From an uncultured Solibacteraceae bacterium (GTDB lineage: Bacteria > Acidobacteriota > Terriglobia > Bryobacterales > Bryobacteraceae), in NCBI GenBank assembly GCA_964493965.1, contig CAZBQQ010000003.1, forward strand, positions 22,562 to 86,561: a stretch of DNA of 64,000 nucleotides, in the 5' to 3' direction. Positions 279 to 19,771 of the stretch are shown in pieces. The first letter of the stretch is position 1. Each line of letters starts with the position of its first letter. A model generated the notes under the pieces. It saw nothing but the letters and a program-made list of their open reading frames with translations, had not been told where the DNA came from and made no database searches. Both the position numbers and the translations under genes were made by a program.

Positions 279-719
279 ATGGCGACAGGCGCAGTGGTGG
301 ATCCCTATCGTAATTACAATTTTCTGGTCGAGATCGACGGCATCGCGCAGGGTAGTTTCATGGAGTGCAGCGGCCTCGACGCGACCACGGAAAGCATCGA
401 ATACCGCGAAGGCGGTGACAACGTCACGGTGCGAAAGCTGCCCGGAAAAACCTCTTACGGCGACATCACGCTGAAATGGGGGGTCAATCCCTCGAAGGAC
501 CTGTGGACCTGGCGCAAGCAGGTTATTCAGGGCAACATCCAGCGCAAGAACGGCTCGGTGGTGGTCTACGATCTGGCCAATTCCACCGAGGTGGCGCGCT
601 GGAACTTTGTGCGCGGCTGGCCCGTTAAGTGGGAAGGCCCGCACTTCGACGCCAAAGGCAAGGATGTGGCGGTGGAGACCTTGACCATCGCCCACGAAGG
701 CATCGACAGGGCGACATAG
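279..719 (+). CDS. CIS inner tube protein (T4 gp19-like tail tube family)
   Basis: 146 aa. It carries YRNYNFLVEIDGI, ECSGLD, EYREGGDN, KLPGKTSYGDITLKWGV and WPVKWEGP motifs typical of the conserved phage tail tube family. An AGGAAAGGAGAG RBS lies upstream. Confidence 0.9.
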   Translation: MATGAVVDPYRNYNFLVEIDGIAQGSFMECSGLDATTESIEYREGGDNVTVRKLPGKTSYGDITLKWGVNPSKDLWTWRKQVIQGNIQRKNGSVVVYDLANSTEVARWNFVRGWPVKWEGPHFDAKGKDVAVETLTIAHEGIDRAT

Positions 720-722
720 CAT

Positions 723-1100
723 ATGTTCCAGACCGAATACGAATTCACGCTACCCAAGGGATACGTCGACGTTGACGGCCAACTGCACCGCGAGGGCGTC
801 ATGCGCCTGGCCACCGCGGCCGATGAGATCCTGCCGCTTGCGGATCCGCGGGTGGAGAAGAACCCCGCGTACCTGCTGGTGATTCTCTTTTCGCGAGTGG
901 TGATCAAGCTTGGAAGGATCAAGCAGGTGACTCCCAAGACCATGGAGGGCCTGTTCTCCGAAGACCTGGCGTTCCTGCACCGGTTCTTCAACGAGATCAA
1001 CGGCGTGGGTGCGAGGAGGGTGTCCACGCGCTGCCCCAAGTGCAGCCATGAATACAGCGTGGAGCCTGCGCCGTTGGGGGAATTAGCGGCTATCCCTTAG
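723..1100 (+). CDS. conserved CIS protein in the tail-assembly-chaperone slot
   Basis: 125 aa. The ATG is 4 nt after the tube stop. There is a single CPKC motif near the C-terminus. The assignment is positional only (tube > this gene > DUF6760-like > DUF4157 > LysM tube-like). Confidence 0.6.
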   Translation: MFQTEYEFTLPKGYVDVDGQLHREGVMRLATAADEILPLADPRVEKNPAYLLVILFSRVVIKLGRIKQVTPKTMEGLFSEDLAFLHRFFNEINGVGARRVSTRCPKCSHEYSVEPAPLGELAAIP

Positions 1101-1240
1101 ATCTGCTCCACGAGGAGGTAGCCCTGATCGGCATGTACTGCCACTGGTCGTACACAGAGGTCATGTCGATGGAGCACGCCGAGCGGCGGCGATGGATCCG
1201 TGAAATCGTGCGCCTGGCGCGCACGGAGAGAAGCGCGTGA
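1052..1240 (+). CDS. DUF6760-like small ORF overlapping the preceding gene in the -1 frame (no canonical start before ATG 1133)
   Basis: The open frame 1052-1240 reads IQRGACAVGGISGYPLDLLHEEVALIGMYCHWSYTEVMSMEHAERRRWIREIVRLARTERSA. The YPLD-L-EEVA...HW...EH-ERRRW pattern matches what I recall for DUF6760 proteins of CIS loci. Its TGA (1238-1240) overlaps the GTG (1237) of the next gene. The ORF is under 60 aa from any ATG and is therefore absent from the track. Confidence 0.5.
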   Translation: MQRGACAVGGISGYPLDLLHEEVALIGMYCHWSYTEVMSMEHAERRRWIREIVRLARTERSA

Positions 1241-2097
1241 ACGACGACGAAAACAATCCGGAACGCGAGCGTGAACTGCCCGGTGCACGCTGGCTTGGCG
1301 CGGCCTTGGAGCAGTTGGGACGCTTCGCGGTGGACCGCAAATGGCCCGCGGCCGCGGAGTCGATCCGCGCCCGGTTCGACGCCGTCCCGCGCATGGAGTC
1401 GCTCCGCGAGCGCGTGCAAACGGCGCGTGCGCAAACCCCACGAGAAGGCCAGCCCCGCAGGATTCCGTTCCCGCAGCCCGAGCCTCCCCAGACCGCGAGC
1501 GTGGAAGACCAGCCGCCGCAAGCCGAGCCCGAGGAAGGCCGCGGGCTCGATCCGGCTCTGCGCGCCCGCCTCGAAAAACTGCTGCGCTTCGGGCTTCCGG
1601 CCATCCGCGTCTACACGGGATACGGCGCGGATCGCCTTGCGCGGCGGCACAACGCCGACGCCGTGACGGTTCGCGATGAAATCCACTTCCGCCAGGGCGC
1701 CTACGATCCGGCGACGTCCCGGGGGCTGGGTCTGCTGGCCCACGAGGCCACGCACGTTGCCTGGGATCGCGGCGCACGCACGTCCCGTCTGACCCAGGGG
1801 CTCGATCCCGCGCAGGCCGAAGAGCGGGCGGCCATCGATAACGAACGGCGCGTTCTTTACGCGGACGCGCGGCCGGCTGGATTGCGGCCCCTGCTCCCGG
1901 CTCCCCCTCTACCCATGGCCGGCCCGCCCCCGCGTTCCGGCGTCCGCACGGCGCAGACCTCCCGCGACCTGAGCCAGCCCGAGGCGGCGCCGGTCCAGGC
2001 CGCCCAACTCTCGGACGCTCAGCTGCGCGCTCTGCGGCACGACATTCACACCTCGCTGCTCGACAAGCTGCGAACGGATTACGAACGAGGAGCCTAG
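1237..2097 (+). CDS. DUF4157 domain protein (HExxH motif HEATH) in the tape-measure slot of the CIS operon
   Basis: 286 aa with a GTG start. The DUF4157-like core reads LPAIRVYTGYGADRLARRHNADAVTVRDEIHFRQGAYDPATSRGLGLLAHEATHV, with HEATH at nt 1741-1755. The flanks are Pro/Glu-rich. Confidence 0.75.
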   Translation: MNDDENNPERERELPGARWLGAALEQLGRFAVDRKWPAAAESIRARFDAVPRMESLRERVQTARAQTPREGQPRRIPFPQPEPPQTASVEDQPPQAEPEEGRGLDPALRARLEKLLRFGLPAIRVYTGYGADRLARRHNADAVTVRDEIHFRQGAYDPATSRGLGLLAHEATHVAWDRGARTSRLTQGLDPAQAEERAAIDNERRVLYADARPAGLRPLLPAPPLPMAGPPPRSGVRTAQTSRDLSQPEAAPVQAAQLSDAQLRALRHDIHTSLLDKLRTDYERGA

Positions 2098-2100
2098 AAC

Positions 2101-2730
2101 ATGTCGCTCGAAAAGGCCTCCATCACGAAACTCAGCACCGGCGAGCAGATGTCCGTGATGTTCAATCCCGCCGAATACAGCTTCGACCTGGGCAACACCT
2201 TCGCCGAAATCGACATCCCGGGCCTCCGCACGCCGCCCATCCAGTACGTACGCGGCAACGCCAGCTCGCTGCGCATGGAGCTCTTCTTCGACAGCTATGA
2301 GAGCCAGTCCGATGTGCGGGCATCCACCACGCAGTTGACCGCGCTGCTCGACGCCGACCCCATTACGTCAGCCCCGCCGATTCTCCTGTTCAACTGGGGC
2401 GGATTCGCGCTGAAGTGCGTCCTCGAATCCGTCGCCCAGCGCTTCACCATGTTTCTGGAAGACGGCACGCCCGTGCGCGCCACCCTCACGGCGACGTTCA
2501 AGGAGTACGAGCCCGTACAGGTGCAAATCCAGTCCGGGTTCTTCGTCGGGCCGCCCACCGTCGTCAATATCGTTCAGGGAGCCACGGTCAGCAAAATAGC
2601 CGAACAGGTGCTCGGCGATCCAACGCAATGGCGGACCATCGCCGACGCGAACAACATCGACAATCCCCGGAAGCTGCAGGCGGGCGGTACGGTGATCGTG
2701 CCGCCCAACACGCCGCAGCCTCCTTTCTGA
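2101..2730 (+). CDS. CIS tube-like protein with C-terminal LysM domain (tube initiator / Afp5-7-like)
   Basis: 209 aa. The N-terminal part (VMFNPAEYSF...LRMELFFD) is tube-family-like. The C-terminal part VQGATVSKIAEQVLGDPTQWRTIADANNIDNPRKLQAGGTVIVP is a LysM motif. A GAGGAG RBS lies upstream. Confidence 0.85.
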   Translation: MSLEKASITKLSTGEQMSVMFNPAEYSFDLGNTFAEIDIPGLRTPPIQYVRGNASSLRMELFFDSYESQSDVRASTTQLTALLDADPITSAPPILLFNWGGFALKCVLESVAQRFTMFLEDGTPVRATLTATFKEYEPVQVQIQSGFFVGPPTVVNIVQGATVSKIAEQVLGDPTQWRTIADANNIDNPRKLQAGGTVIVPPNTPQPPF

Positions 2731-2740
2731 GGCGCCGAAA

Positions 2741-4312
2741 ATGGGATCGTTTTACGCCCCGGCATTCAACGTGAAGATCGCAGGCCTGACGCTGGCAGCC
2801 AACGTCACCCGCTCCATCATCGAGCTGGTGTATGACAACAGCCTCACCACCGCCGACATGTTCACGCTGAAGCTGAACAACGCCGACATGAGCTTGACCG
2901 ATTCGGCGCTGTTCGACGTGGGCAAGAACGTCGAGATCTACATGGGCTATGCCGGCGACTTGCAGCCGATGATGCTAGGCGAAATCGCGGCCGTGAATCC
3001 GTCTTTCCCTCGGGACGGCGCGCCCATGATGACCATCACCGGCTACGACAAATCGCAGAAGATGCGGCACAACACGCCGGAGCCCTTCACGTTCAAGTAC
3101 ATGCCCGATAGCGCGATCGCCGCTGCCATCGCGGGGGAAAACCTGCTGATTCCCATCGTGGACCCTTCGCCCACCGGAGTGCGCGAGTCCGTTCAGCAGA
3201 CCGGCAGTGACTGGGCTTTCTTGCGCGATCTCGCTCGGCGCAATTTCTTCGAGCTCTTCGTCTATTGGGATCGCCTCTATTTCCGCTTCCCCCGCCCGCA
3301 GACCCAGCTCACCATTCTCGAGTGGGGCAAGAACCTGAGCAGTTTCAGCCCGCGCCTATCGACTTCGGGCCAGTTCGGCATCCAAGTGCTGCGCGGTTAC
3401 GACTACAAGCTGGCGCAGACCATCGTGGCGGTGCTTCCGGCGGTGACGCTCGGCGGCGACCTCTCCGACATCATCGAGCGGCTGGGCTCGAGCTTCCTCG
3501 AGCAACTGGTCTCTCTCGGCCGCTACGTGGTGCGTGACCAGCCCATCAACAACTATCTCGACGCGCTCGCGGTCGCCAAATCCGTCCTCCTTCAACTGCT
3601 CGAAGGCCTGTTTGAGGGCAGCGGCTCCTGCATCGGCATGCCGCAGCTTCGCGCTGGCGACTACGTGCAGATCAACGGCGTCGGACAGCGCTTCAGCGGC
3701 CGGTACAAGCTCAGCAAGGTGACCCACACCATCAGCGACGCCGGTTACATCACCAACTTCGAAGTGTCGCAGAACGTGAACGCCGCTCTGCTGGAGAGCC
3801 TGCGCAAGAAGCTCGGTGGATCCAGCAAGCCGGACGGCCAGTCCGCGGTCAACGGCGTCGTGGTGGCCAAGGTGGAGAACAACATCGATCCGGAGGGCCT
3901 GGGCCGCGTGCAGCTCTCGTTTCCGCATCTGTCCGACGTGAACCTGAGCAACTGGGCCCGCGTCGCCACGCCCATGGCGGGAAGCAGCAGCGGTATCTTC
4001 TTCCTGCCCGATGTCGGCGACGAAGTGCTGGCCACTTTCGAACAGGGCGACGTCGATAAGCCCGTGGTGTTGGGTGGGCTGTGGAACGGCCTGAGCCGGC
4101 CACCCGTAGTCAACGCCGGGCCAAATCAGACCAAGACCATCAAGCTCAAGAAGGGCCTGGAGGTTCAATTGGACGAAACCAAGGGCCTGACGCTCCAGAA
4201 CGGGCTGGGGTCGTCGATCTCGCTCGACCTTCAGGGCAACATAACGATCCAGGCGGTGGGAGACGTAACGATCAAATCGGGCCCGGCCGGCAAGGTCCAT
4301 CTCAATCCGTAA
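2741..4312 (+). CDS. spike/hub protein: phage late control gpD-like N-terminus fused to gp5/VgrG OB-fold and beta-helix (Afp8-like)
   Basis: 523 aa. The N-terminus is gpD-like (YAPAFNVKIAGL...MGYAGDLQPMMLGEI...ITGYD). The central part VVAKVENNIDPEGLGRVQLSFPHL...WARVATPMAG...FFLPDVGDEVLATFEQGDVDKPVVLGGLWN is the Phage_base_V/VgrG signature. Confidence 0.9.
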   Translation: MGSFYAPAFNVKIAGLTLAANVTRSIIELVYDNSLTTADMFTLKLNNADMSLTDSALFDVGKNVEIYMGYAGDLQPMMLGEIAAVNPSFPRDGAPMMTITGYDKSQKMRHNTPEPFTFKYMPDSAIAAAIAGENLLIPIVDPSPTGVRESVQQTGSDWAFLRDLARRNFFELFVYWDRLYFRFPRPQTQLTILEWGKNLSSFSPRLSTSGQFGIQVLRGYDYKLAQTIVAVLPAVTLGGDLSDIIERLGSSFLEQLVSLGRYVVRDQPINNYLDALAVAKSVLLQLLEGLFEGSGSCIGMPQLRAGDYVQINGVGQRFSGRYKLSKVTHTISDAGYITNFEVSQNVNAALLESLRKKLGGSSKPDGQSAVNGVVVAKVENNIDPEGLGRVQLSFPHLSDVNLSNWARVATPMAGSSSGIFFLPDVGDEVLATFEQGDVDKPVVLGGLWNGLSRPPVVNAGPNQTKTIKLKKGLEVQLDETKGLTLQNGLGSSISLDLQGNITIQAVGDVTIKSGPAGKVHLNP

Positions 4313-4326
4313 AGGGGAGGTTTCCG

Positions 4327-4740
4327 ATGCAGCAGCAAATCGTGGTTCAGGGGCGGACATTGACAACGACGGTGACGGCTCCTCCCGCGCCGGCCGTGCT
4401 CAACGTCGCGCTCACTCCAACGGACCACCCGGCGTTGCACTGCGACGCCAGCTCGAAAGGCGCGCTGATCCAGGGCATTGACCTGACGTGCAACTGCACC
4501 GGCGATTGGGTCACGGGAACCTCGACCTTCGTTGGTGCCGGGACGGGAACCATCTCCGCCTCCACTCCTCGTGTGCAGTGCGAAGGGCAGTCGATGGTGA
4601 CTCTCGGGGATGCGGTCAGCATCAGTTGCCCCGGGACGATCACCGTCACCGCCGGCGGCGCCACCTCGGCCGGCACGGCCAAAGTGACCGTGACCATCAC
4701 CGACGCCGCCCAGCTGACGGTGGACGCCAACAAGGCTTGA
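4327..4740 (+). CDS. putative spike-tip protein (PAAR/DUF4280 slot)
   Basis: 137 aa from ATG 4327, with a GGGGAGG RBS; the track ORF 4081.. is an upstream extension overlapping the spike gene. The protein is Cys-containing and Thr/Gly-rich. It sits between the VgrG-like and gp25 genes. No clean PAAR motif was seen. Confidence 0.5.
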   Translation: MQQQIVVQGRTLTTTVTAPPAPAVLNVALTPTDHPALHCDASSKGALIQGIDLTCNCTGDWVTGTSTFVGAGTGTISASTPRVQCEGQSMVTLGDAVSISCPGTITVTAGGATSAGTAKVTVTITDAAQLTVDANKA

Positions 4741-5160: not shown

Positions 5161-7269
5161 ATGGCGAATGGTCAACTGCAAACCCTGAACCTGGACGACC
5201 GGATGTGGCAGGACATCGTCGACGAGGCCCGAAGCCTCATTCCGCGCTACAACCCCGAGTGGACCGATCACAACGCGACCGACCTGGGCATCACGCTCAT
5301 GGAGCTGTTCGCGTGGATCGTAGAGGGCATGCAGTACCGTCTCAATCGCGTGCCCGACAATAACTTCATCGAGTTCCTCAACCTGCTCGGCATCACCCAG
5401 GACCCGGCTTCGCCCGCTACTGTCTTTCTGACCTACCAGCTCGCTGGCGTCTCGCCGCCCCTCACCCTGCCCAAGGGGAACGTCGTCGCAACCCAGCAGA
5501 CCGACCAGGATCCGGCCATCCTGTTCGAAACCGATGCGGACGTGTCGCTGCTCCCCACAAACCTGACCACCGCCATCAGTCTGCACAAGACCGGCCTGCA
5601 CTACGAGAACGTCACCTCACAGATGGTCGCCGCGCCGCTCAGCGGGTATTCCTACTCGCTGGCGCCCGGCGACGTGTTGACTCTGACGCTCGGCTTCGAC
5701 CAGGCCACAGCGCTGCCGATCCCACTCAGCTTCCTGTTCCGCACGCCCGTCAGCCCCGGCAGCCTGCAGGTGCTCTGGCAGTATTCCCAAGCCGCCGTGT
5801 CACCACTCCTCTGGCCCGTGATCCCAGGCGTCCTTGATGGCACCACGTCTTTCACTCAGAACGGCGTCGCCAGCGTAACGGTCCCGCTCGACTGGGCAGC
5901 CCAGACGCCTAAAAACTGGGGCCTCACTCCAACCACGCTGGCCGACGCGGTCGACAAGCAGTTGTTCTGGGTCGGCGTGCATGTCTCGAATCTGACGGCG
6001 AACCCGCTGACCATTCAGATCGATTCCATTCTCTTCAACAGCGTGCATGCGAGCAACGCGCTCACTGTGACCCAGCCGGAATTGGCCGGCACCAGCAATG
6101 GAAAGCCCTTCCAGTATTTCGACCTCGTGAACGCGCCGCTCTACCAGCACCCCGGCGTTCCCGATCCCTACGACCACCTGGTTGTGCAGGTGCGCCAGGC
6201 CTTGCCCGGCGGCACGTTCGGACCGTGGACCACCTGGTCCCGGGTGGATGATTTCCCGCAAGGCGCGGCCAACGTCTTCCGTCTCGACGCCGTGATGGGC
6301 CGCCTCAGCTTCGGCAACTACGATTCCATCGTCTCGCCCGACGGTCACGGAACCATCCCGCCATCGGAGAGCCAGATCCAGGCGCTCACGTATCGCTACG
6401 TGGTGGGCGGCGTCATCGGCAACGTGCCGCCCTCTACCATCACCGTTCTGCGCGCGCCCGTCGCGGGGCTGGTGGCGGCCACGAACCCGGGCCCAGCGGC
6501 CAACGGAGCGGACCAGGAGTCCATCGACGACACCAAGCGCCGCGGCCCCGAGGTGCTGCGCAACCGCTACCGGGCGGTCGCCGCCGAGGACTACGAGTAT
6601 CTCGCAGTCCAGGCGAGCACCGAGGTCCAGAAGGTTCGCTGCCTGCCGCCCCGCCTCTTCACGGTCTACGACCAGAGCTTCAATCCGGCCGTAAAGCCGG
6701 GCGATCCCTGGACCTACGGCGGCCTGAACCGCGACTCGGGCAACGTCCAGGTCATCATTATTCCCGGCTCCCCGCTGAGCAATCCCACGCCGGCGCCGAC
6801 TGCGGAGTTGCTGGCGGAGGTCGCCGACTACCTGGAGCAGCGCCGCTCCGTCACCGCCGCCCTCACCGTCACCGGCCCGCGCTACCTGCCCATCAAGGTG
6901 ACCGCCCAGATCATGGTCTGGAAGCAGGCGGTGGACCAGGGTCTGGTGCCCGATCCGGCCACCTCCACCACGGTGCACGACGGCATCGTCGCCCAGATCA
7001 AGCAGTTCCTGCACCCCACCCTGGGCAACAGCGACGGAAACGGATGGGATGTCGGGGAGGACCAGACCATCGCGCCCCTGTTCGAATTCATCAAGCCGCC
7101 CAACGCGGTCGGCTTCATCTCGTCCCTGCAAATCGACGCGGAGACTCCGCTCTACACGCCGCCAACGCGACTGTATCCCACCGGCGTGTTGGGCGTCTGG
7201 GTCAAATTCGCCGACTACGAAATGGTCTGTAGCGCCGCGGCGCACAACGTGACGGTAACCAAGATCTGA
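5161..7269 (+). CDS. baseplate J-like protein (gp6/Afp11-like)
   Basis: 702 aa. The N-terminal part WTDHNATDLGITLMELFAWIVEGMQYRLNRVPDNNFIEFLNLLGI is typical of Baseplate_J proteins, and the gene sits after gp25. Confidence 0.85.
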   Translation: MANGQLQTLNLDDRMWQDIVDEARSLIPRYNPEWTDHNATDLGITLMELFAWIVEGMQYRLNRVPDNNFIEFLNLLGITQDPASPATVFLTYQLAGVSPPLTLPKGNVVATQQTDQDPAILFETDADVSLLPTNLTTAISLHKTGLHYENVTSQMVAAPLSGYSYSLAPGDVLTLTLGFDQATALPIPLSFLFRTPVSPGSLQVLWQYSQAAVSPLLWPVIPGVLDGTTSFTQNGVASVTVPLDWAAQTPKNWGLTPTTLADAVDKQLFWVGVHVSNLTANPLTIQIDSILFNSVHASNALTVTQPELAGTSNGKPFQYFDLVNAPLYQHPGVPDPYDHLVVQVRQALPGGTFGPWTTWSRVDDFPQGAANVFRLDAVMGRLSFGNYDSIVSPDGHGTIPPSESQIQALTYRYVVGGVIGNVPPSTITVLRAPVAGLVAATNPGPAANGADQESIDDTKRRGPEVLRNRYRAVAAEDYEYLAVQASTEVQKVRCLPPRLFTVYDQSFNPAVKPGDPWTYGGLNRDSGNVQVIIIPGSPLSNPTPAPTAELLAEVADYLEQRRSVTAALTVTGPRYLPIKVTAQIMVWKQAVDQGLVPDPATSTTVHDGIVAQIKQFLHPTLGNSDGNGWDVGEDQTIAPLFEFIKPPNAVGFISSLQIDAETPLYTPPTRLYPTGVLGVWVKFADYEMVCSAAAHNVTVTKI

Positions 7270-11612: not shown

Positions 11613-12599
11613 ATGGTCCAGCGCAGTGTGGCAAAGCGACAGTGGGCCGCGGCGAAGTTGTACGAGACTCCGGACGCTCGCCTCAAGGCGTTTCTCTATC
11701 ACGTCGACGCGTACACGACTGAGTGCTGGGACGATGTGGTCGCCCTGCTCCGCAAGGACTACTACGACCTGTTCGACCAGATCGTGCCGCCGCTGGTCGC
11801 CTCTTCCGACAAGGCCCTGCGCGTGCAGCTCTTCCTCCACATCGATCCAAAACAGCCCAAGGAGTTGGATCTTCTGCGCCAGTTCATCCGCCAGGCTGAT
11901 CCCGTAAAGGACCAGCCGGAACTGAAGGCGATCGCCGGATTCAACCATCCGGCGCTGCAGAAGGAAATCGCCGGCCGGCCCGAGATAGCGGCTGTGCTGG
12001 CGCCCTCCGCGCCGCCGCGAAGAGCCGTGACCAACGTGCGGCCGGCTCCCGCGACCGCCGCCGGCCCTCCGCCGCCTTCGAAAAAACCGGAGTCCAAGGA
12101 TCAACCGGAGCCAGCCGCGATCGCCGTTGCGAGCAATCCGGCGCCGCAGCAGGACATTGCCGTGCGCCCCTCCGCGCCGCCGCGAAGAGCCGTGACCAAC
12201 GTCCGGCTGCCTCCCGCGCCCGCCGCCGAGCCCCCGCCGCCCCCGAAAGAACCGGGCCCCAAGGATCAACCGGAGCCAGCCGCGAGCGCCGGCTCCAACG
12301 ATCAGGCACCGCCGCAGGAGATTGCCCGAAAGCCCCCGCCGCGAAGAGCGGCGACCAAGGTGCGGGCGGCTCCCGCGCCCGCCGCCGCGCCTCCGCCGCC
12401 GCGGAAAGAACCGGGCCCCAAGGATCAACCGGAGCCAGCCGCGAGCGCCGGCTCCAACGATCAGGCACCGCCGCAGGAGATTGCCCGAAAGCCCCCGCCG
12501 CGAAGAGCGGCGACCAAGGTGCGGGCGGCTCCCGCGCCCGCCGCCGCGCCTCCGCCGCCGCGGAAGAAACCGCGCCGCAAGCCGCGGGGTAAGGCATGA
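11613..12599 (+). CDS. Pro-rich basic tandem-repeat protein
   Basis: 328 aa with a GGAGGGA RBS. A globular ~100-aa N-terminus is followed by four ~53-aa repeats (DQPEP...PPRRA-TKVR-APAPAA-PPPP-K) and a polybasic tail RKKPRRKPRGKA. The stop overlaps the next ATG (ATGA at 12596-12599). Confidence 0.6.
   Translation: MVQRSVAKRQWAAAKLYETPDARLKAFLYHVDAYTTECWDDVVALLRKDYYDLFDQIVPPLVASSDKALRVQLFLHIDPKQPKELDLLRQFIRQADPVKDQPELKAIAGFNHPALQKEIAGRPEIAAVLAPSAPPRRAVTNVRPAPATAAGPPPPSKKPESKDQPEPAAIAVASNPAPQQDIAVRPSAPPRRAVTNVRLPPAPAAEPPPPPKEPGPKDQPEPAASAGSNDQAPPQEIARKPPPRRAATKVRAAPAPAAAPPPPRKEPGPKDQPEPAASAGSNDQAPPQEIARKPPPRRAATKVRAAPAPAAAPPPPRKKPRRKPRGKA
11910..12575 (+). repeat. coding tandem repeat, ~159-bp period, 4 copies; the last two copies are identical over 162 nt
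   Basis: nt 12245-12406 and 12404-12565 are identical by direct reading. The earlier copies are diverged. Confidence 0.85.
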
Positions 12600-15500
12600 A
12601 TCGTAGCCGGGCCGACAAAACGCCCGCTGTTCGCACCGTTGAGAGTGCGGCGCAGGTGCGGGAACACGAGCCCGCGCTGGCGATCGCCAAGGCCCAGGGC
12701 CTGCGCGGTTTGCAGCCGCTGGCGGGCAATCGCGCTTTGCTAGCGATTCTCTCGGGCGCGCCCGGCGCGGGTGCACGGCCCCATCGCCACCGGATCGAAA
12801 ACGTGGATGGCGGCCCTGGATCAGAGGAGCTGCGAATCGATGGCGCCCCTGTCCTGCGTTACCCGCGCAACGCGCCGCCTGTCTCGGCTGCGTGGTCGGA
12901 CCTTCGGCCGGACCTGATCCACCTCGCACTCTCCGCCAAAACCGCAGCCGGCGCCCGGCAGAACGCTCCCGGCCTGATGCGGCTGGCCCTTCGGGGGATT
13001 ACGGTGGTGCCCCATGAGGGCGAGGTTCCGCGGCGCTACGGCGAGACAAGGCGCGTCGAACCCCTGCCCGCCCCGCCCACTCCCGCGCAGGGCGAGGCCG
13101 CCTATCATGCGGGCCAGGCGGATGCCGCGGATAGCGATGCCTCCCCTCCCGCGATCGTCGAACCGCCGCCCGAAGATGGCGAATCGGACCAGCCCTCCGA
13201 ACGCGAGGCCGATCGCGTCGCCGCCGCCGTCGCCGGCCGCGCCCCGCCCCGTGTTAGCCCGCTTCTGCCTCTTCACGAGCGCGTTTCCTCGCGGCGTGCG
13301 CGCTTCGGACCCGGTGCCGCCCTCTCGCGCCCCCTGCGCGAGTTCTTCGAGGCGCGATTCGGCCGCTCGCTCGCCGGCGTCGGCATCCACACCGGCCCGG
13401 AGGCGGAGCGCGCCGCGGAAAGGGCCGGGGCGCGCGCCTTCGCCTACGGCTCCTCCATCGTCTTCAACCGCTCCGAATTTGCTCCGCAGTCGCCGGCCGG
13501 CCGCGAACTGCTCGCCCACGAGCTGACCCACGTGGTGCAGCAAGTGGAAAGCGGTCGCGCTCCCGTCATTCAGCGCGACGCCAAGAAGGAGCAGCCTCAG
13601 CAGACGAGCGTCACCGGCGTAACCGTCTACTGCACCGACGACCCCTTCTCTTCGAGCTACATCGTCTTCGCCACGGCCACAGGCAATCTCACCTACGAAT
13701 TGAGCGACTGTACGGTTCCGGAGGGAGGTTACGAGACCACGGTTACCGTCGAGGGGAAGAAGGTTCATTGGGACTTCGGCGATAAGTTGGTGGGCGGCCA
13801 GCAATACGAGTTCGGCTTCAAGGTACTGCCCGGCCAACGCGACCCCGCGACCCTCTTCAAAAAACAGAAGAAGGTTCACGTCGACGTCATCAAGAAGACC
13901 CTCTTCGCGTTCGCGCCGTCGGAAGATAAGCAGGAGGAGCCGGAGAAGCCGTCGCTCGCCGACCGCGTCGCCGCCTTCAAGCGTCTGGTCAAGGCCGCGG
14001 GCCAGGCGCGCATGGCGGGCAACCGCTCCGCGCTCGCGGACTGGCGCCAGTTCCTCGAACAGCAACTGCAGCCCAAACAGGTGGAGCGCATGGCTTACTC
14101 CCAGGACGTCCGCGACCTCCAGGTTCGGGCCGTGCAGGAGGGCGGGCAGGCGCTGCAGGCTTACGACCAGGCCGTCACTTCAAAGAACCCAATCCGGCGA
14201 ATGAAGGCCGAGGGCCAGGTGAGGGGCGAGAATCGGGTCTGCATGGGCTGCCACCTGGAGCTTCTCGCCGACCAGTTGGAAAAGGAGACTCCGAAGTACC
14301 TGCAGACCGGCCGCGAATGGGAAGCGCCGGTGGACATCTTGAAGGACTACGCCGCCGACGAGATGAAGTCCCCCACGCCCCGTCCCACCTTCGCCAAGCC
14401 GCTCAAAGGCGAGGGCATGCCTCCCGAATACCGCATCGACAACCAGGCGCTTCCGGGTGCAACTTCCGCTTCGGCCTCCTTGACCAAGATCCAGCCCTTC
14501 CTCCTCGTCCTCGGACCCGCCAACTACGACGTGCTGCCGGAAAACCTGCTGGTGACGCACACCGAGCCCGCCGAGGTCCTGACCGAAATCGTGAACCGCA
14601 TTGAGGAGCGCCGCGCCAAGTTTGCCGCCTTCTCGAGGAAGATCGGCGAGCCCGACTTCGATTACCTCACGCTCCGGCCCATCGTCCGCGAGTTGCTCCC
14701 TTTGCAGGACGAGGCCGTCCAGAAAGCCATCGAAGAGGAGATAGAGGTCGCCGAGACCTGGGAGAAGGTCAAGAGCGTCCTGATGTTCGGCCTCACCATC
14801 GCCCTGCTCCTGCTGGCCATCTTTCCTCCCACCTCCGCCATCGGCATCGCCGGCGTCGCGGCCCTGGAAGCGGGCATGGGGGCCTACGCGATCTATTCCG
14901 GCATCAGCGCTTTCGAGCAGGGCTACATGCTCTCGCTCGGCAAGGGCGCCCACGACGTGCTCGACAAGGAACAGCAGGAGGCCGCCAACCAGATGATGGT
15001 CATGGGCGCGATCACCGCCGTGATGGGCGCGATTGGCCTCAAGAATGCCGCGGTGAAAGGCGTCAAGCTGGTGCGCGGCGGGCCGACGGCGGTCACCGGC
15101 GCCCTGAAGCCGATCGACGCCATCGAGGGCGAGGCCGGCGGCAACAAGATCGCCATCACCGAGATGTCGGGCGGCAGCCCCAAGGTGAAGGTCACCTCGC
15201 CCGAAGGCAAGGTGCTTTACGACGGACCGCTCAAAGACATGCCGCAGGAAGGTTTCGGCGGCGGCACCACGGGCGCCCCTCCCGAGCCTGGAGGGAATCT
15301 GCTGCAGCAACAGCGCGCCGCGGCCTGGCAACGTCTCGCCGCGTCCAAGGAGGCCGAAGCCGCCGAGTTGGAACGCCGCGTCGCCGTAATGAAGGATGTC
15401 GACAAGGCCGCGAAGTTCAAGGATCAGGCCGCCGCTCTGCGCAAAGAGGCAGCCAGCCTGAAGGAGGAGTCCGCCGAATACGCCGCCGGAACCCGGTCGG

Positions 15501-16030
15501 CGACCGCGGATCTGCCGACCAATGAGGAGATCGACGCCGAGATCGACAAGCTCGCCGCCGGGAAAGGCGCGCCCCAGCAGAAGGTCGAAGTGCCGCTTTC
15601 GAAGAGCGAGCAAACTCCTGCCGAACTGCCGCGCCTGGAGCGCGGGCTGCTGAAGACTGCGCGCGGCCGCGTGGTCTTCCGAGTGGAGGGCAGCGGCAGC
15701 CGTACTCTCCTCAACGTCGATCCGGCCGGAGCAGTCACTACCACGCCGGGCACCGCATATCTGAACTTCGGCTCGGTCGAACGGGCCCTCGAGTTCCTCG
15801 CCAAGCGCGGTCCCGGCGCAAGAATCGTGGCCTTTGAGGTGGAGGAGAGTTGGGTACAGTCCCTGCGTTCCGCCGCCGTCCCCGAGCGTGGAACGAAGTT
15901 CCTGCAGGGACAGCCGCGATTGGTCGACGTACGCTTCGCCGAAGACCAGATGGAAATTCCAGCGAACCTGCTACCGGAGATGGAGAAATTCATCGTTCCG
16001 GGATCGGCCAAGGTCGTGATCACCAGGTGA
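12596..16030 (+). CDS. large DUF4157/HExxH protein with central hydrophobic segments, coiled-coil region and unknown C-terminal domain (candidate CIS cargo)
   Basis: 1144 aa. It has a LQPLAGNRALLAIL leader and the DUF4157 core LREFFEARFGRSLAGVGIHTGPEAERAAERAGARAFAYGSSIVFN...GRELLAHELTHVVQQ (HELTH at 13517-13531). Hydrophobic stretches lie at about nt 14760-15045. An Ala/Glu/Lys-rich helical region follows. Confidence 0.8.
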   Translation: MNRSRADKTPAVRTVESAAQVREHEPALAIAKAQGLRGLQPLAGNRALLAILSGAPGAGARPHRHRIENVDGGPGSEELRIDGAPVLRYPRNAPPVSAAWSDLRPDLIHLALSAKTAAGARQNAPGLMRLALRGITVVPHEGEVPRRYGETRRVEPLPAPPTPAQGEAAYHAGQADAADSDASPPAIVEPPPEDGESDQPSEREADRVAAAVAGRAPPRVSPLLPLHERVSSRRARFGPGAALSRPLREFFEARFGRSLAGVGIHTGPEAERAAERAGARAFAYGSSIVFNRSEFAPQSPAGRELLAHELTHVVQQVESGRAPVIQRDAKKEQPQQTSVTGVTVYCTDDPFSSSYIVFATATGNLTYELSDCTVPEGGYETTVTVEGKKVHWDFGDKLVGGQQYEFGFKVLPGQRDPATLFKKQKKVHVDVIKKTLFAFAPSEDKQEEPEKPSLADRVAAFKRLVKAAGQARMAGNRSALADWRQFLEQQLQPKQVERMAYSQDVRDLQVRAVQEGGQALQAYDQAVTSKNPIRRMKAEGQVRGENRVCMGCHLELLADQLEKETPKYLQTGREWEAPVDILKDYAADEMKSPTPRPTFAKPLKGEGMPPEYRIDNQALPGATSASASLTKIQPFLLVLGPANYDVLPENLLVTHTEPAEVLTEIVNRIEERRAKFAAFSRKIGEPDFDYLTLRPIVRELLPLQDEAVQKAIEEEIEVAETWEKVKSVLMFGLTIALLLLAIFPPTSAIGIAGVAALEAGMGAYAIYSGISAFEQGYMLSLGKGAHDVLDKEQQEAANQMMVMGAITAVMGAIGLKNAAVKGVKLVRGGPTAVTGALKPIDAIEGEAGGNKIAITEMSGGSPKVKVTSPEGKVLYDGPLKDMPQEGFGGGTTGAPPEPGGNLLQQQRAAAWQRLAASKEAEAAELERRVAVMKDVDKAAKFKDQAAALRKEAASLKEESAEYAAGTRSATADLPTNEEIDAEIDKLAAGKGAPQQKVEVPLSKSEQTPAELPRLERGLLKTARGRVVFRVEGSGSRTLLNVDPAGAVTTTPGTAYLNFGSVERALEFLAKRGPGARIVAFEVEESWVQSLRSAAVPERGTKFLQGQPRLVDVRFAEDQMEIPANLLPEMEKFIVPGSAKVVITR

Positions 16031-16040
16031 AGGATCGGCT

Positions 16041-19000
16041 ATGAAGCGCGCCCACGCCGGCAAGGTCAGACCCCGCCCCGTTCGCAACCGGGGCGCCAAG
16101 GCTCCGCCCGCGTCCGCTCAGGCGCCGCCCGCTGTGCTCGGGCTGCAATCGCTGATCGGGAACCGCGCCGTCGCGTCTATGCTGCGGCGTAACGCCGGCC
16201 GCCAGCCAGGCATCCCGGTAAGGGCGGCGCTCCAATCCTCCGGCAGGCCCCTCGATGACGGGACGCGAGCTGAGATGGAGCAGCACTTCGGCGAGGATCT
16301 CGATACGGTGCGGGTTCACTCCGGCCCGCGCGCAGCCGCCACCGCCGACGCCGCGAACGCGCTCGCTTTCACCGTCGGTGACGACGTAGTCTTCAACCAG
16401 GGCCAGGTGTCCGCGGATCGCGCCGACTCCGAAGAGCTATTGACTCACGAACTGGCCCACGTGGTCCAGCAGCGGCGTGGCGGCCAGGCGCGTGCGGGCT
16501 CCGCCGCGCCGGAGCAGTCCGCGGCGAAAGCAGCCGCCGATGTGGCCGGCGGCGCCGAACGCGTCGATCTGCCCGCCGGAAGCATGGTCGGCATGGCCCG
16601 GCAAGACAAGCCCGAAACCCCAGGGCCCAAGGTGGGATACGTTGAAGCGGGCGAAGGTCTGCAGGAGGTCCAGGTTGACGGCGTCGGCGTCATCCGGTAT
16701 CCGAAGGACAACAGCCTCCAGGATGAGCAATTCGCCGTTGCCATCGGCTGGACAACCGACGAGCCTGGAACGCTGAACATCGCGATCCGCCGCAAGACCA
16801 CCACGCCCGTGCGCGTCGACCAGGCAGCCATGTCGCGGCTCGCCGCCCTCGGCTACAACAAGGTGGTGATCAACGAGTACCCAATCCCGGTGGACCTCAG
16901 GGAACATCCCGGGCCGCAGTTCCGGCCGCTGCCGCCCCCGGAGGCGCGCCCGAAGCCGAAGCCCAAGCCCAAAGCACCGCCCCCGAAGATCGAAGCGAAG
17001 CCGCCCGACTTGCCGCCCCTGCCTGCGCCGGATGTGGACGAACTGCCGCAACTCCCGCCGCCGGAGCTGCACGACGTCCTCGCACCGCCACCTCCGCCTC
17101 CTCCCACGCTGGTGCAGCCGGTCGAGAGCGACATTGTGCCGCCGCCCACGCCCCATCTGGAAACGATCGAGCCACCGCCGCCCGTGCGAACGCCGGAGGA
17201 GTTGATCGACGACCACACGAGTTGGCTGAATCTCGACGAGCAGGCGCTGGGCGCCGATCTGCTCAAGCGAGCCTTGCGTAGCGACCCCGACTACGTCCAG
17301 CGCGTCATCGATTCGTTGGGCTCCACCGACCAGGATGATGTGTCCTTGGCTTTCGCCGAAGCCGCAACCGACGAGCAGCTTCGCCAGCTCGCCGGGACCC
17401 CCGAAGGCCGTCGCCTCCTGGACCGCCTCTTCGACGAGCTGACCGCCGGGGAAGTCTTCGAGGACGAGCAGAAGCAGGCGGACCGCATCCTCGCCATCAA
17501 GACCAAGGCGGTGATGACGGCGGAGGTATTCGCCAAGGGGTTGGAGAAGGCGAAATCCAGCCTGATTCTGCCTTACAGAAAACCCGGCATTACAGTGCTG
17601 ACCCCCTCGCCCATATACGCGCGCCGTCTCCCCGATGGCAAGATCGCCGTCCACCTCCGTTTCGACATTTTCGGCACCGATTACTTTTACGATCGCGATC
17701 TGCGCCTGCCGTCCAGGATCTGGGACGAGGTGATCCTCGACGAAACCGACGTCGTGGGAGTGAAGTTCTACGACGAGGGCGGGACCGTGGGCTACTTCCC
17801 CGCGCTCTACCTGTTGCAGCTCGAGAACGAATCGACGCGAGTGGCGCTCGAGAAGGCTGGTGAGGCATTCGGCACCGGCCTGACGTTCGGGTTTGGAGGC
17901 GAGGTGGCGGCCGGGGCCGAAACGGTGGAGGGTCTGGGCGCCGTCTCGACTGTGGCTCGCGTCGGCGCGGCCGCTCGCACTGGCCTGGTCTGGGCCGACC
18001 GTATCGCCTTGACGCTAGATCTCACCAACAGCGTCATCCAGGAACACCGCGGCTGGATTATCGAGACCTGGCCGGACCAGGGCCGCGAGTTCGTCACCAG
18101 CCTCGACCAGATCACAGCCTACGTTCGGATTTACGGCCTGGCGCGCGGCGGCATTGGCCTCGTGCAGCTGGGGAATGGCCTGCGCAAGAACTACGCCAAC
18201 TGGCGCGCCGCCGTCAGAGCGGCCAAAGAACTGGACGCGAGCGACCTCGAGAACATCGAGCAGGTTGGCAAGCAGACCGAGGCTTTGCTCCAAGCCATCG
18301 ACGATGCCGAGAAGGCCGGCCCGCCGGCCGTCAAGCCAGCTGTCGCAGGGACCGGGCCGCCTCCCGACCCTGAGTCGCTCGCCGACACGGCCGCCAAGTC
18401 GCCGATCCGCTCCGTAGTACAGGGCGAGGGACAAACCACCGCGGCCAAGACCGGCCACCTCAAGGTGGTCGGAGGGAAGAAGGAACTGACGCCTGCCGTC
18501 AACGCTGCCGAAGAGCTCGAGGAAGCGGAGCAGGAACTTCGGGCGGTTTCGGGCGATCCGAGGGCCGTGCGCCGGGTGGTGGCTCCGAAGAAGGCGCCGA
18601 AGACCGTTACCACCACCGCCGGCGGAACTGTCGGCGAAACCACCGAGGCTGTTCCCAAGAAGGGGGGCGGGCGCGGCGGAGGCGGCAGCGGTACAACGGG
18701 CAAGGCGATCGAGAAGAAGGAGATCAAGCGCTACGTCGCCGAGCGGCTCAAGGAACAACTGCAGGGGCACAAGCCCGATCCCACAGAATTCCTCACGTTT
18801 CACGAGCAGGTGACCATCCGCGGGAAGAGCTATGGCGGCAACAGCACCTTCAACGACATCGCGGAGGGTTTGAACAACTCGTCCACTCTGCGGCAGCAGG
18901 GCCTCAAACCGGCGCTCCCGCTGGACCCCAAGAAGGTCGACGCACTACTGAAAGAGGGCCAGATCAACTTCATCAAGCGCAACGCCGACCTGAGCACCCT

Positions 19001-19346
19001 TTACGATCAGCTCGACCGGCTGGCCAAGGGGCAGTCCGTACCTGAGCTCGAAGCGCTCCAACTCTCCCCTTCGCGTCTATCCGAGATCAGAGAAGAATTG
19101 GAGGCTCTCCAGGTCCGCCGGATCGGCAATATGCGGACCGACATCACCGAAGTCTGGTTCGATACCAAACGCGTCGAGATCGCCGACATCTCCCTGCGGG
19201 AGAACGACCCTCTCCACGAGTTCAAGACTCTCCTATACAAACACATCATGGAGGAAATGCTGCCTGGCTTCACCGTCCGCGCCCAGGACATCAAACCCAC
19301 GCCGGGGAACTACTTCAACTACCTGTTCAAACTGGTGGGAGAGTAG
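16041..19346 (+). CDS. large DUF4157/HExxH protein with Pro-rich linker and unknown C-terminal domains (candidate CIS cargo)
   Basis: 1101 aa. It has a LQSLIGNRAVASML leader and the DUF4157 core GRPLDDGTRAEMEQHFGEDLDTVRVHSGPRAAATADAANALAFTVGDDVVFN...LLTHELAHVVQQ (HELAH at 16446-16460). A poly-Pro linker lies at about 16920-17170. Confidence 0.8.
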   Translation: MKRAHAGKVRPRPVRNRGAKAPPASAQAPPAVLGLQSLIGNRAVASMLRRNAGRQPGIPVRAALQSSGRPLDDGTRAEMEQHFGEDLDTVRVHSGPRAAATADAANALAFTVGDDVVFNQGQVSADRADSEELLTHELAHVVQQRRGGQARAGSAAPEQSAAKAAADVAGGAERVDLPAGSMVGMARQDKPETPGPKVGYVEAGEGLQEVQVDGVGVIRYPKDNSLQDEQFAVAIGWTTDEPGTLNIAIRRKTTTPVRVDQAAMSRLAALGYNKVVINEYPIPVDLREHPGPQFRPLPPPEARPKPKPKPKAPPPKIEAKPPDLPPLPAPDVDELPQLPPPELHDVLAPPPPPPPTLVQPVESDIVPPPTPHLETIEPPPPVRTPEELIDDHTSWLNLDEQALGADLLKRALRSDPDYVQRVIDSLGSTDQDDVSLAFAEAATDEQLRQLAGTPEGRRLLDRLFDELTAGEVFEDEQKQADRILAIKTKAVMTAEVFAKGLEKAKSSLILPYRKPGITVLTPSPIYARRLPDGKIAVHLRFDIFGTDYFYDRDLRLPSRIWDEVILDETDVVGVKFYDEGGTVGYFPALYLLQLENESTRVALEKAGEAFGTGLTFGFGGEVAAGAETVEGLGAVSTVARVGAAARTGLVWADRIALTLDLTNSVIQEHRGWIIETWPDQGREFVTSLDQITAYVRIYGLARGGIGLVQLGNGLRKNYANWRAAVRAAKELDASDLENIEQVGKQTEALLQAIDDAEKAGPPAVKPAVAGTGPPPDPESLADTAAKSPIRSVVQGEGQTTAAKTGHLKVVGGKKELTPAVNAAEELEEAEQELRAVSGDPRAVRRVVAPKKAPKTVTTTAGGTVGETTEAVPKKGGGRGGGGSGTTGKAIEKKEIKRYVAERLKEQLQGHKPDPTEFLTFHEQVTIRGKSYGGNSTFNDIAEGLNNSSTLRQQGLKPALPLDPKKVDALLKEGQINFIKRNADLSTLYDQLDRLAKGQSVPELEALQLSPSRLSEIREELEALQVRRIGNMRTDITEVWFDTKRVEIADISLRENDPLHEFKTLLYKHIMEEMLPGFTVRAQDIKPTPGNYFNYLFKLVGE

Positions 19347-19457: not shown

Positions 19458-19539
19458 CTCCACAAAACCCTTTTTGTGTGATAGGATTCCGCTGTAAAGA
19501 TCCAGATGGGCAGGTGTCCTCCTGCATGGCGCTGGGCAA

Positions 19540-19771
19540 GTGGTCGCGCTTCAAGACCGCCTACAGAGCCTGCTCCGTAAGACTCCGGCTGCGCGCGATA
19601 CTGCCGGGATTGGCGTACGTGCGCTATCGCGGCGGCGTGGATACGCAACTCAACGCCCTGGATGCGGACCGCGACCTCTTTCAGGCCGAGCTGACGGACT
19701 CCCAGATCAAGCTGAACGAGTTGCTAAGCGTGGTTCAGCTGTACAAGGCCCTGGGCGGCGGATGGGACTAG
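19540..19771 (+). pseudogene. 3' remnant of an RND-efflux outer membrane factor (NodT family) gene
   Basis: The terminal translation YVRYRGGVDTQLNALDADRDLFQAELTDSQIKLNELLSVVQLYKALGGGWD* is the characteristic C-terminus of NodT/OprM-type lipoproteins. About 400 N-terminal codons are absent. A frame change around nt 19600 is likely. Confidence 0.65.

Follow-up and report, generated by a model that had tools for sequence, protein, structure and literature searches.

An uncultured Solibacteraceae bacterium (assembly GCA_964493965.1, contig CAZBQQ010000003.1, positions 22,562 to 86,561) carries an operon for an extracellular contractile injection system (eCIS) that ends in two large genes, here named A and B. 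The stretch of 64,000 nucleotides (nt) that was analysed is referred to as the window, and its numbering is used throughout. A and B are the last two genes of the operon, located at its 3' end on the same strand as the rest, and both are intact open reading frames (ORFs) in the ORF listing. Gene A (12596-16030, plus strand) encodes 1144 amino acids (aa) and gene B (16041-19346, plus strand) 1101 aa. The start of A at 12596 precedes the stop of the upstream ORF (12599), so that the two overlap by 4 nt (ATGA); from the end of A at 16030 to the start of B at 16041 there is a gap of 10 nt. These coordinates bear out the overlap and gap noted in a preliminary description of this DNA, which was made from the sequence letters and proposed the two proteins as candidate cargo.

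From its N-terminus, A is composed of a leader, a module of about 85 aa, a DUF4157 domain, a β-rich domain, a core with hydrophobic helices, a coiled coil and a C-terminal tip. In B, the leader is followed by DUF4157, a second copy of the 85-aa module, a proline-rich linker, a different core, another linker and a rare C-terminal domain.

Shared N-terminal elements of A and B

The Pfam family PF13699, formerly DUF4157 and now named eCIS_core, has a curated cutoff of 22 bits and matches both proteins far above it. The domain covers aa 243-318 of A (13322-13549, plus strand; E 3.9e-26, 91.5 bits) and aa 70-147 of B (16248-16481, plus strand; E 3e-28, 98.2 bits). The HExxH motif is intact in each copy (HELTH in A, HELAH in B), with HELTHVVQQ starting at 13517 and HELAHVVQQ at 16446, exactly as first read. 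Apart from PF13699, library scans matched no Pfam or NCBIfam family to A or B.

Pairwise BLASTP shows three pieces common to the two proteins: DUF4157 itself (43% identity, E 2e-11), a short leader piece (aa 38-52 of A aligned with aa 34-48 of B) and the module of about 85 aa. The module spans aa 66-145 of A (12791-13030, plus strand) and aa 197-283 of B (16629-16889, plus strand), and its copies share 29% identity (E 5e-7). It lies 5' of DUF4157 in A and 3' of it in B, and the domain shuffling suggested earlier is therefore real.

Both N-termini are rich in Arg, Ala, Pro and Gly and carry an LQxxxGNxA motif; the N-terminal region of A also holds its copy of the 85-aa module. The leader motif is LQPLAGNRALLAIL in A (aa 39-52; 12710-12751, plus strand) and LQSLIGNRAVASML in B (aa 35-48; 16143-16184, plus strand). 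It begins with LQPLAGNRA at aa 39 and LQSLIGNRA at aa 35, respectively, so that the LQxLxGNRA leaders of the preliminary description are found in both. Among the relatives introduced below, the pattern [LIVMF]Q..(1-3)GN.A occurs 5' of HExxH in 17 of 31 B-family and 4 of 21 A-family proteins, compared with 0.04 expected in each family by shuffling. The motif is a candidate loading signal by analogy with the Cgo proteins of the eCIS from Algoriphagus machipongonensis (AlgoCIS), whose disordered N-terminal domain is needed for loading (bioRxiv 10.64898/2026.05.27.728243).

All three DUF4157 proteins of the operon have an intact HExxH motif, which would fit a role of A and B mainly as metalloproteases that process cargo or attack the target, with C-termini that bind substrate and are not toxins. 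However, DUF4157 is only about 79 aa long and is fused to dozens of unrelated toxins, growth inhibition by Cgo1 is independent of its metalloprotease motifs (PMC8894135), and the tips act as autonomous, mobile domains. We consider a primarily proteolytic role very improbable.

Conserved cores and exchangeable C-termini

Searches with the parts that follow DUF4157 gave relatives of A in 22 clusters and relatives of B in 52, 74 in all. The A-family core (aa 452-885; 13949-15250, plus strand), delimited by alignments and hydropathy, is kept throughout the 22 clusters and at 13 genome loci of at least five phyla, and has 24-81% identity in all 18 aligned relatives. Taxa with this core include Acidobacteriota, Bacteroidota, Myxococcota, Cupriavidus, Chloroflexia, Tahibacter and Candidatus Methanoperedens. 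The β-rich domain in front of it (aa 330-445; 13583-13930, plus strand) occurs in only part of the family, as judged from identity and coverage per region. The B-family core (aa 386-756; 17196-18308, plus strand), defined from family alignments, is present in every member of its family at 30-92% identity. Homology between the two cores was considered and rejected (hhalign probability 0.3%).

At the junction between core and tip, identity drops sharply in both families. The region of A past aa 886 is common to 10 of the 22 clusters, and the others have at least seven unrelated tails. B's own tail is found in seven clusters, next to at least 15 other tail types, so that the A core carries at least eight tail types and the B core at least 16. 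Five of the B-family tails are nuclease toxins known to Pfam (Col-Pyo_DNase, AHH, EndoU_bacteria, RNAse_A_bac, which is CdiA RNase A-like, and CdiA_C_tRNase). By eye, the tips of the B-family relatives P0037, P0039 and P0040 contain a motif like that of PoNe DNases, published as Kx3GE...GIDx2Y...ExK (PMC6688995); the motif is missing from the tips of both A and B, and a PoNe identity was rejected for each. Total protein length ranges from 816 to 1209 aa in the A family and from 563 to 1267 aa in the B family. In orthologues that keep A's tail, this tail is the best-conserved region, with 64-93% identity against 57-81% for the core, as would be expected of a functional domain.

These alignments support a polymorphic-toxin layout for A and B, with a constant leader, DUF4157 and core ahead of an abruptly changing C-terminus. 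The proteins had initially been described as polymorphic payloads, and the comparison of variable C-termini with conserved cores in their relatives is positive. On this sequence evidence we consider it likely that the eCIS of this operon uses A and B as modular effector (cargo) proteins, built in the manner of polymorphic toxins.

Linkers and short forms of the B family

The B core is set between two linkers. The proline-rich linker on its N-terminal side (aa 290-385; 16908-17195, plus strand) contributes to a stretch with 34 Pro in aa 301-400. On the C-terminal side, 63-112 aa past the core, the linker takes the form of an acidic/Gln-rich stretch followed by [LIVM]RA(A)SGDP. In B, the motif is LRAVSGDP (aa 833-840; 18537-18560, plus strand), and in the family it precedes several unrelated tips. 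The strict linker pattern occurs in 8 of 35 B-family members, where 0.005 are expected. The motif may mark a recombination junction or be a site of processing.

The B family includes fifteen short members (563-715 aa), with no DUF4157 match, 6-57 aa after the core and no toxin tip. One such short form (P0067; L017, 10001-11749) has apparently housekeeping genes on its flanks and no CIS genes within 10 kb.

Hydrophobic helices and an invariant C-x-x-C-H in the A core

The strongest hydrophobic segment of A is located at aa 725-743 (Kyte-Doolittle 2.39), and two more Gly/Ala-rich hydrophobic stretches reach to about aa 815. Hydropathy places the block at aa 725-815 (14768-15040), in agreement with the hydrophobic segments first reported at about 14760-15045. 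The hydrophobic helix and the two further segments are conserved family-wide, and in distant A-family members the block is the best-kept part of the core. In B, no segment rises above the transmembrane threshold in the hydropathy profile. Past the core of A, an Ala/Glu/Lys-rich region (aa 900-990; 15293-15565, plus strand) is predicted from its composition to form a coiled coil, and makes up the first part of the swappable cassette.

A strongly hydrophobic helix and two more hydrophobic segments kept across a family might indicate that A is a membrane anchor or firing adaptor which ties the CIS to the producer's own membrane, comparable to membrane-associated factors of cytoplasmic or thylakoid-anchored CISs, and not an ejected toxin. 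A membrane-associated protein has been proposed as a putative contraction trigger for a closely related Streptomyces CIS (PMC13277306), and Anabaena is reported to have a thylakoid-anchored CIS (PMC8894136). However, A bears an effector-type leader and DUF4157, and its C-terminus is polymorphic and common to Rhs/CdiA toxins. A-type genes occur as orphans elsewhere and are missing from a syntenic operon, and the tail-fibre-slot and Ig-like genes of the present operon are typical of released particles. We see only a very slim chance that A serves as an anchor.

The core also contains a C-x-x-C-H motif at aa 549-553 (14240-14254), with the local sequence RVCMGCHLE and the consensus RACTGCH. It is invariant in all 19 aligned A-family members and in all 12 loci, out of the 13 genome loci, for which this segment is aligned; distant loci that keep it include those of Cupriavidus, Chloroflexia, Bacteroidota and Candidatus Methanoperedens. 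C-x-x-C-H is the signature of haem-c attachment. Despite this motif, A is expected to be cytoplasmic cargo without a Sec signal, and the motif may form a metal site or work as a redox switch.

The C-terminal domain of A

The C-terminal domain of A (aa 1010-1144; 15623-16030, plus strand) belongs to a large unannotated family of toxin tips. A profile made from aa 995-1144 of A and eight orthologues was searched against 1.84 billion representative proteins and matched 459 clusters at E <= 1e-3, with 173 at E <= 1e-10. Of the 163 domain hits among the best 150 and the family members, 140 end no more than 25 residues from the C-terminus. The proteins that carry it range from 98 to 3445 aa, and the domain is preceded by RHS repeats with DUF6531, PT-VENN, PT-TG, Fil_haemagg_2, DUF6862 or eCIS_core. 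It forms the very tip of the Rhs proteins P0194 and P0192. As the A tip falls in a widespread domain family that caps Rhs/CdiA-type toxins, it is most likely an enzymatic toxin; its distribution is observed directly, and its function is deduced from that distribution.

The protein P0071 carries A's tip on a B-like chassis. Read by eye, it has a comparable coiled coil, then the sequence LPGPEEIDELL, ahead of the A-type C-terminal domain. Exchange of a cassette between the two types of chassis is seen directly in this protein.

Over 16 diverse members, the invariant residues of the A-tip domain are R1029, N1057, D1111 and Q1118. An ADP-ribosyltransferase reading (R...S...ExE) was dropped; the 'E-x-E' is not conserved, and the invariant positions are R, N, D and Q. 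Searches of PDB sequences with A, the family profile and the A-tip profile gave no match, and the 16 sequences showed no recurrent family against Pfam and NCBIfam at relaxed thresholds.

The Rhs protein P0194 is encoded near an Hcp gene, and a 167-aa ORF (L015, 14335-14838) overlaps it directly 3'. The position directly after a toxin gene is the usual place of an immunity gene. Farther 3' of this Rhs protein (L015, 16080-17104), there is a PTS_2-RNA (Tpt1/KptA-like) gene and then a weak SUKH-3 match, a layout that resembles an orphan toxin/immunity array.

The C-terminal domain of B

The C-terminal domain of B (aa 885-1101; 18693-19346, plus strand) is rare. It was found only on the B chassis, in seven clusters, and on two short fragments, whose contigs measure 675 and 1068 nt. 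The profile search for this tip was word-limited and returned the two fragments but not the known family members, which makes its sensitivity doubtful. The AlphaFold2 model of aa 885-1101, computed with five relatives, shows a confident α/β domain (predicted local distance difference test, pLDDT, 80.4; predicted template modelling score, pTM, 0.81), and its invariant residues include D1034, E1037, D1041, D1049, H1059 and K1062.

Foldseek searches with the model gave nothing significant in the PDB (best E 0.16, template modelling (TM) score about 0.2) or in BFVD (best E 0.015, TM about 0.2). The weak PD-(D/E)XK, CE-clan protease and acetyltransferase matches (TM about 0.2) were not taken as evidence. 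PD-(D/E)XK nucleases recur among the weak viral matches, which we record as a lead only. B and the B-family profile had no match among PDB sequences. The view that the C-termini of A and B cannot be assigned to a family holds for searches of Pfam, NCBIfam and PDB sequences, and these results, together with the Foldseek result for the B model, leave in place the earlier proposal of possibly new effector domains.

Operon context and the tape-measure slot

The window begins within the CIS operon, whose 5' part we recovered through exact-protein look-ups on sibling metagenome contigs; the operon is complete. Its 5' genes encode, in order, a sigma54 activator, an 88-aa protein, an AAA+ ATPase (763 aa), a Pvc16_N cap protein, the sheath and the tube (window 279-719). 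The middle part encodes a 125-aa protein, a 286-aa DUF4157 protein, a CIS_tube protein with LysM, VgrG, a 137-aa protein, gp25, baseplate J and P2_I. P2_I is followed by a 537-aa protein, an Ig-like protein, a 328-aa protein and then A and B. The length of the 537-aa protein is that called on the sibling contigs; it has a weak CIS13-family match (E 2e-4), well below the cutoff. The sigma54-dependent transcriptional activator (3379-4506 of L007/L008) heads the operon, just 5' of the AAA+ ATPase gene, which suggests sigma54 control of the CIS.

Between the tube gene and CIS_tube, a tail-assembly-chaperone-like gene (723-1100, plus strand; 125 aa; phrog_508, E 9e-7 in a PHROGs scan) is followed by the short DUF4157 gene (1237-2097, plus strand; 286 aa; PF13699 E 2.5e-18), whose product has the HExxH sequence HEATH. 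Together they occupy the position of the tape measure in phage tails and Tme-type CISs, and the operon contains no obvious long ruler.

This arrangement bears on whether A or B could be an effector related to the tape measure, as is Tme of Streptomyces davawensis. Such a protein would set or help to set the length of the tube, lie attached to the spike in the lumen and deliver its C-terminal domain on firing. Tme shares the outline of A, with an N-terminal DUF4157, predicted transmembrane helices, a coiled coil and a C-terminal toxin domain (PMC11126660), and A has both hydrophobic helices and a coiled coil. P0071 is encoded between the tube genes and VgrG of its own CIS locus, which is the position of the tape measure and of Tme (contig JGI 3300047160; genes at 752-1378, 1375-4497 and 6176-7000). 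In addition, the 286-aa protein in the slot seems, by our own judgement of its length, short for a ruler, and each of the three syntenic operons examined has a B-type gene. However, A and B lie at the 3' end, about 10 kb past the slot, which is taken up by the chaperone-like gene and the conserved short DUF4157 gene. The syntenic operon L019 has no A-type gene, and elsewhere such genes stand as orphans at a distance from any CIS. The B core gives the impression, by eye, of a mixed α/β globular region between Pro-rich linkers and not of a long helix, and lengths vary widely within each family. At E <= 0.01, neither A nor B matched any family in a PHROGs scan, hence no tape-measure family, which leaves a tape-measure identity without support. 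The suggestion that one of the two is an Afp14-like length-determining protein is poorly supported on the same grounds of an occupied slot, lack of a PHROGs match, A-type orphans and the A-less operon, and we think it improbable that either protein is of the Tme type.

Directly 5' of A, an accessory gene (11613-12599, plus strand) encodes 328 aa. Its N-terminal part, of about 140 aa, is kept at the same position in two related loci, where tblastn aligns it with a 156-aa gene (L019; 46% identity, E 6e-39) and a 139-aa gene (L014; 30% identity, E 7e-18). The C-terminal half consists of about 3.5 tandem repeats of 159 nt (12012-12585), each coding for 53 aa that are Pro/Ala/Lys-rich by eye. The product is a candidate cargo adaptor or chaperone.

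The genes 3' of B are unrelated and encode a cNMP-binding oxidoreductase, a SpoIIE phosphatase and an anti-sigma/STAS protein. The 460-nt gap directly 3' of B contains nothing but a C-terminal remnant of a gene for outer-membrane efflux, and a terminator-like site was looked for 3' of B and not found. The ORF at 19478-19771, with the C-terminal end LFQAELTDSQIKLNELLSVVQLYKALGGGWD, coincides with a gene call on a sibling contig that has a weak match to OEP (outer-membrane efflux protein). This ORF is apparently what is left of the 3' part of a truncated efflux gene, and the CIS island may have its edge here.

The exact protein is also encoded on metagenome contigs from ENA and JGI samples, and the nearest genome is a Bryobacterales (Acidobacteriota) metagenome-assembled genome with 86% identity. 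In a Bryobacterales metagenome-assembled genome (CAVXQQ010000016.1; L021, 10001-13425), A's nearest genomic orthologue is broken into ORFs of 644 and 415 aa, next to an intact B orthologue of 1104 aa. The split represents either a frameshift/pseudogene or an assembly indel.

Related loci and immunity genes

The predicted cargo complement differs between related loci. The syntenic operon L019 has the short DUF4157 gene, CIS_tube, VgrG, gp25, P2_I, an Ig-like gene and the small accessory gene, followed by one cargo gene only, which is of B type and has B's tip, and then by ORFs of 172 and 127 aa; there is no A-type gene. At L013 and L014, a B-type gene with a different tip precedes a DUF4157 stretch (one gene of 1498 aa in L014, four shorter gene calls in L013) and then three small ORFs. 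A B-type gene is present in 3 of 3 syntenic operons examined, and the B core also occurs outside CIS loci. P0010, an A orthologue with A's tip, is an orphan gene with no CIS operon visible around it. In Sorangium cellulosum, an orphan A-type gene (P0015) lies by DotU and IcmF-related genes, followed by a 191-aa ORF, again with no CIS operon visible.

Points that weigh against an effector role

Several observations count against our preferred reading of A and B as polymorphic-toxin-like effectors. No small immunity-like gene lies directly 3' of A or B, where only the 10-nt gap and the efflux remnant are found, as had been noted for both genes from the start. Candidate immunity ORFs of four related loci, including the 167-aa ORF of the Rhs locus, have no homologue in the window. 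Hydrophobic helices fit poorly with a soluble cargo of the tube lumen, and DUF4157 is dispensable for loading of AlgoCIS (bioRxiv 10.64898/2026.05.27.728243). The AlphaFold2 model of the A tip, from a 9-sequence alignment, has a pLDDT of 38 and offers no fold-based function. The A-type domain is followed by more than 200 aa, and so lies internally, in 14 very large proteins, one of which ends in Tox-ART-HYD1; it is therefore not always a terminal toxin. The domain could have an adaptor or other non-toxin role, or be one of several effector modules in large proteins. For the B tip, which has no known relative, toxicity is deduced purely from its position. Particle loading and toxicity are computational predictions for both proteins.

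The lack of an adjacent immunity gene would fit a released particle that acts on other organisms, or immunity encoded elsewhere, and several eCIS-associated toxins have no associated immunity gene (PMC11297309).

Comparison with known systems

The toxins associated with eCISs have DUF4157, a long linker and a C-terminal toxin, and are encoded at their operon's 3' end (Geller et al. 2021, PMC8213781; Danov et al. 2024, PMC11297309). A and B share this N-terminal DUF4157, long 'linker' and C-terminal toxin layout, and, like several of these toxins, are without an immunity gene. In contrast to previous descriptions, the 'linker' resolves here into two distinct conserved core families, and the tips lie outside annotated toxin domains.

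In AlgoCIS, the two DUF4157 proteins Cgo1 and Cgo2 fill the lumen of the tube (PMC8894135). As in the present operon, there are two DUF4157 proteins per eCIS cluster, each with an N-terminal region (disordered in the Cgo proteins, possibly so in A and B), DUF4157 and then a differing C-terminal domain, and Cgo2 (1228 aa) is near A and B in size; this likeness is one of description and not of sequence comparison. Unlike the Cgo proteins, A and B have large family-specific cores, with hydrophobic helices in that of A, and the shuffled 85-aa module, and their host belongs to another phylum. Tme differs from A and B in its length (2247 aa), its place in the tape-measure slot, its remote tape-measure homology and its nuclease end.

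Rhs and CdiA toxins resemble A and B in having a conserved delivery part, an abrupt junction and an exchangeable C-terminal toxin, and the A tip is literally common to both groups. In contrast, A and B would take the route of a phage-tail-like particle, and they have no YD shell, no VENN or TG junction and no adjacent immunity gene. The haloarchaeal CIS of the type VI secretion system-like kind (PMC11566945) has multiple DUF4157 substrates, some encoded off-cluster, which compares with the orphan A-family genes P0010 and P0015. That system, however, is cell-anchored and contact-dependent, and two of its five secreted DUF4157 proteins are toxic and neutralised by a downstream partner (PMC11566945).

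Proposed mode of action and implications

If A and B are effectors of this eCIS, the Arg/Ala/Pro-rich leader with LQxxxGNxA would steer each protein to the particle during assembly, where it would be recognised probably by the AAA+ ATPase of the operon. DUF4157/eCIS_core may act as an accessory or docking element, and the loaded proteins would reside in the tube lumen or on the spike complex. The leader and DUF4157 are followed by a family-specific conserved core of about 400 aa. After ejection, the Gly-rich hydrophobic helices of the A core could enter the target membrane and help the tip across, as is thought for phage tape-measure proteins and Tme. The last 220-260 aa form an exchangeable cassette, as seen from the other tips, several of them known nucleases, on relatives with the same core.

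A bolder reading holds both that the A tip founds a large unannotated toxin family with a new activity and that the A core is a dedicated metal- or haem-binding module for membrane insertion and translocation. It draws on at least 459 clusters at 50% identity, on the invariant R, N, D and Q of a family common to Rhs, CdiA and eCIS proteins, and on a core with three hydrophobic helices and C-x-x-C-H that is kept from Acidobacteriota to Methanoperedens. We consider this combination rather unlikely. If it were true, the A core would provide a colicin-like translocation step so far undescribed for eCIS cargo.

The architecture, position and logic of A and B are already described for eCISs, and the current picture of how these systems work stays unchanged. 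New in detail are the two chassis families in place of 'linkers', the large unannotated tip family shared with Rhs and CdiA, and a rare tip without a structural relative. The two tips are well-delimited toxin candidates, that of A widespread across Rhs, CdiA and eCIS proteins and that of B rare with a confident model. The leader motif and the gene directly 5' of the cargo pair are candidate loading determinants, and the 'long linkers' of DUF4157 effectors turn out to be conserved modules, which helps to set the limits of cargo in eCIS engineering.

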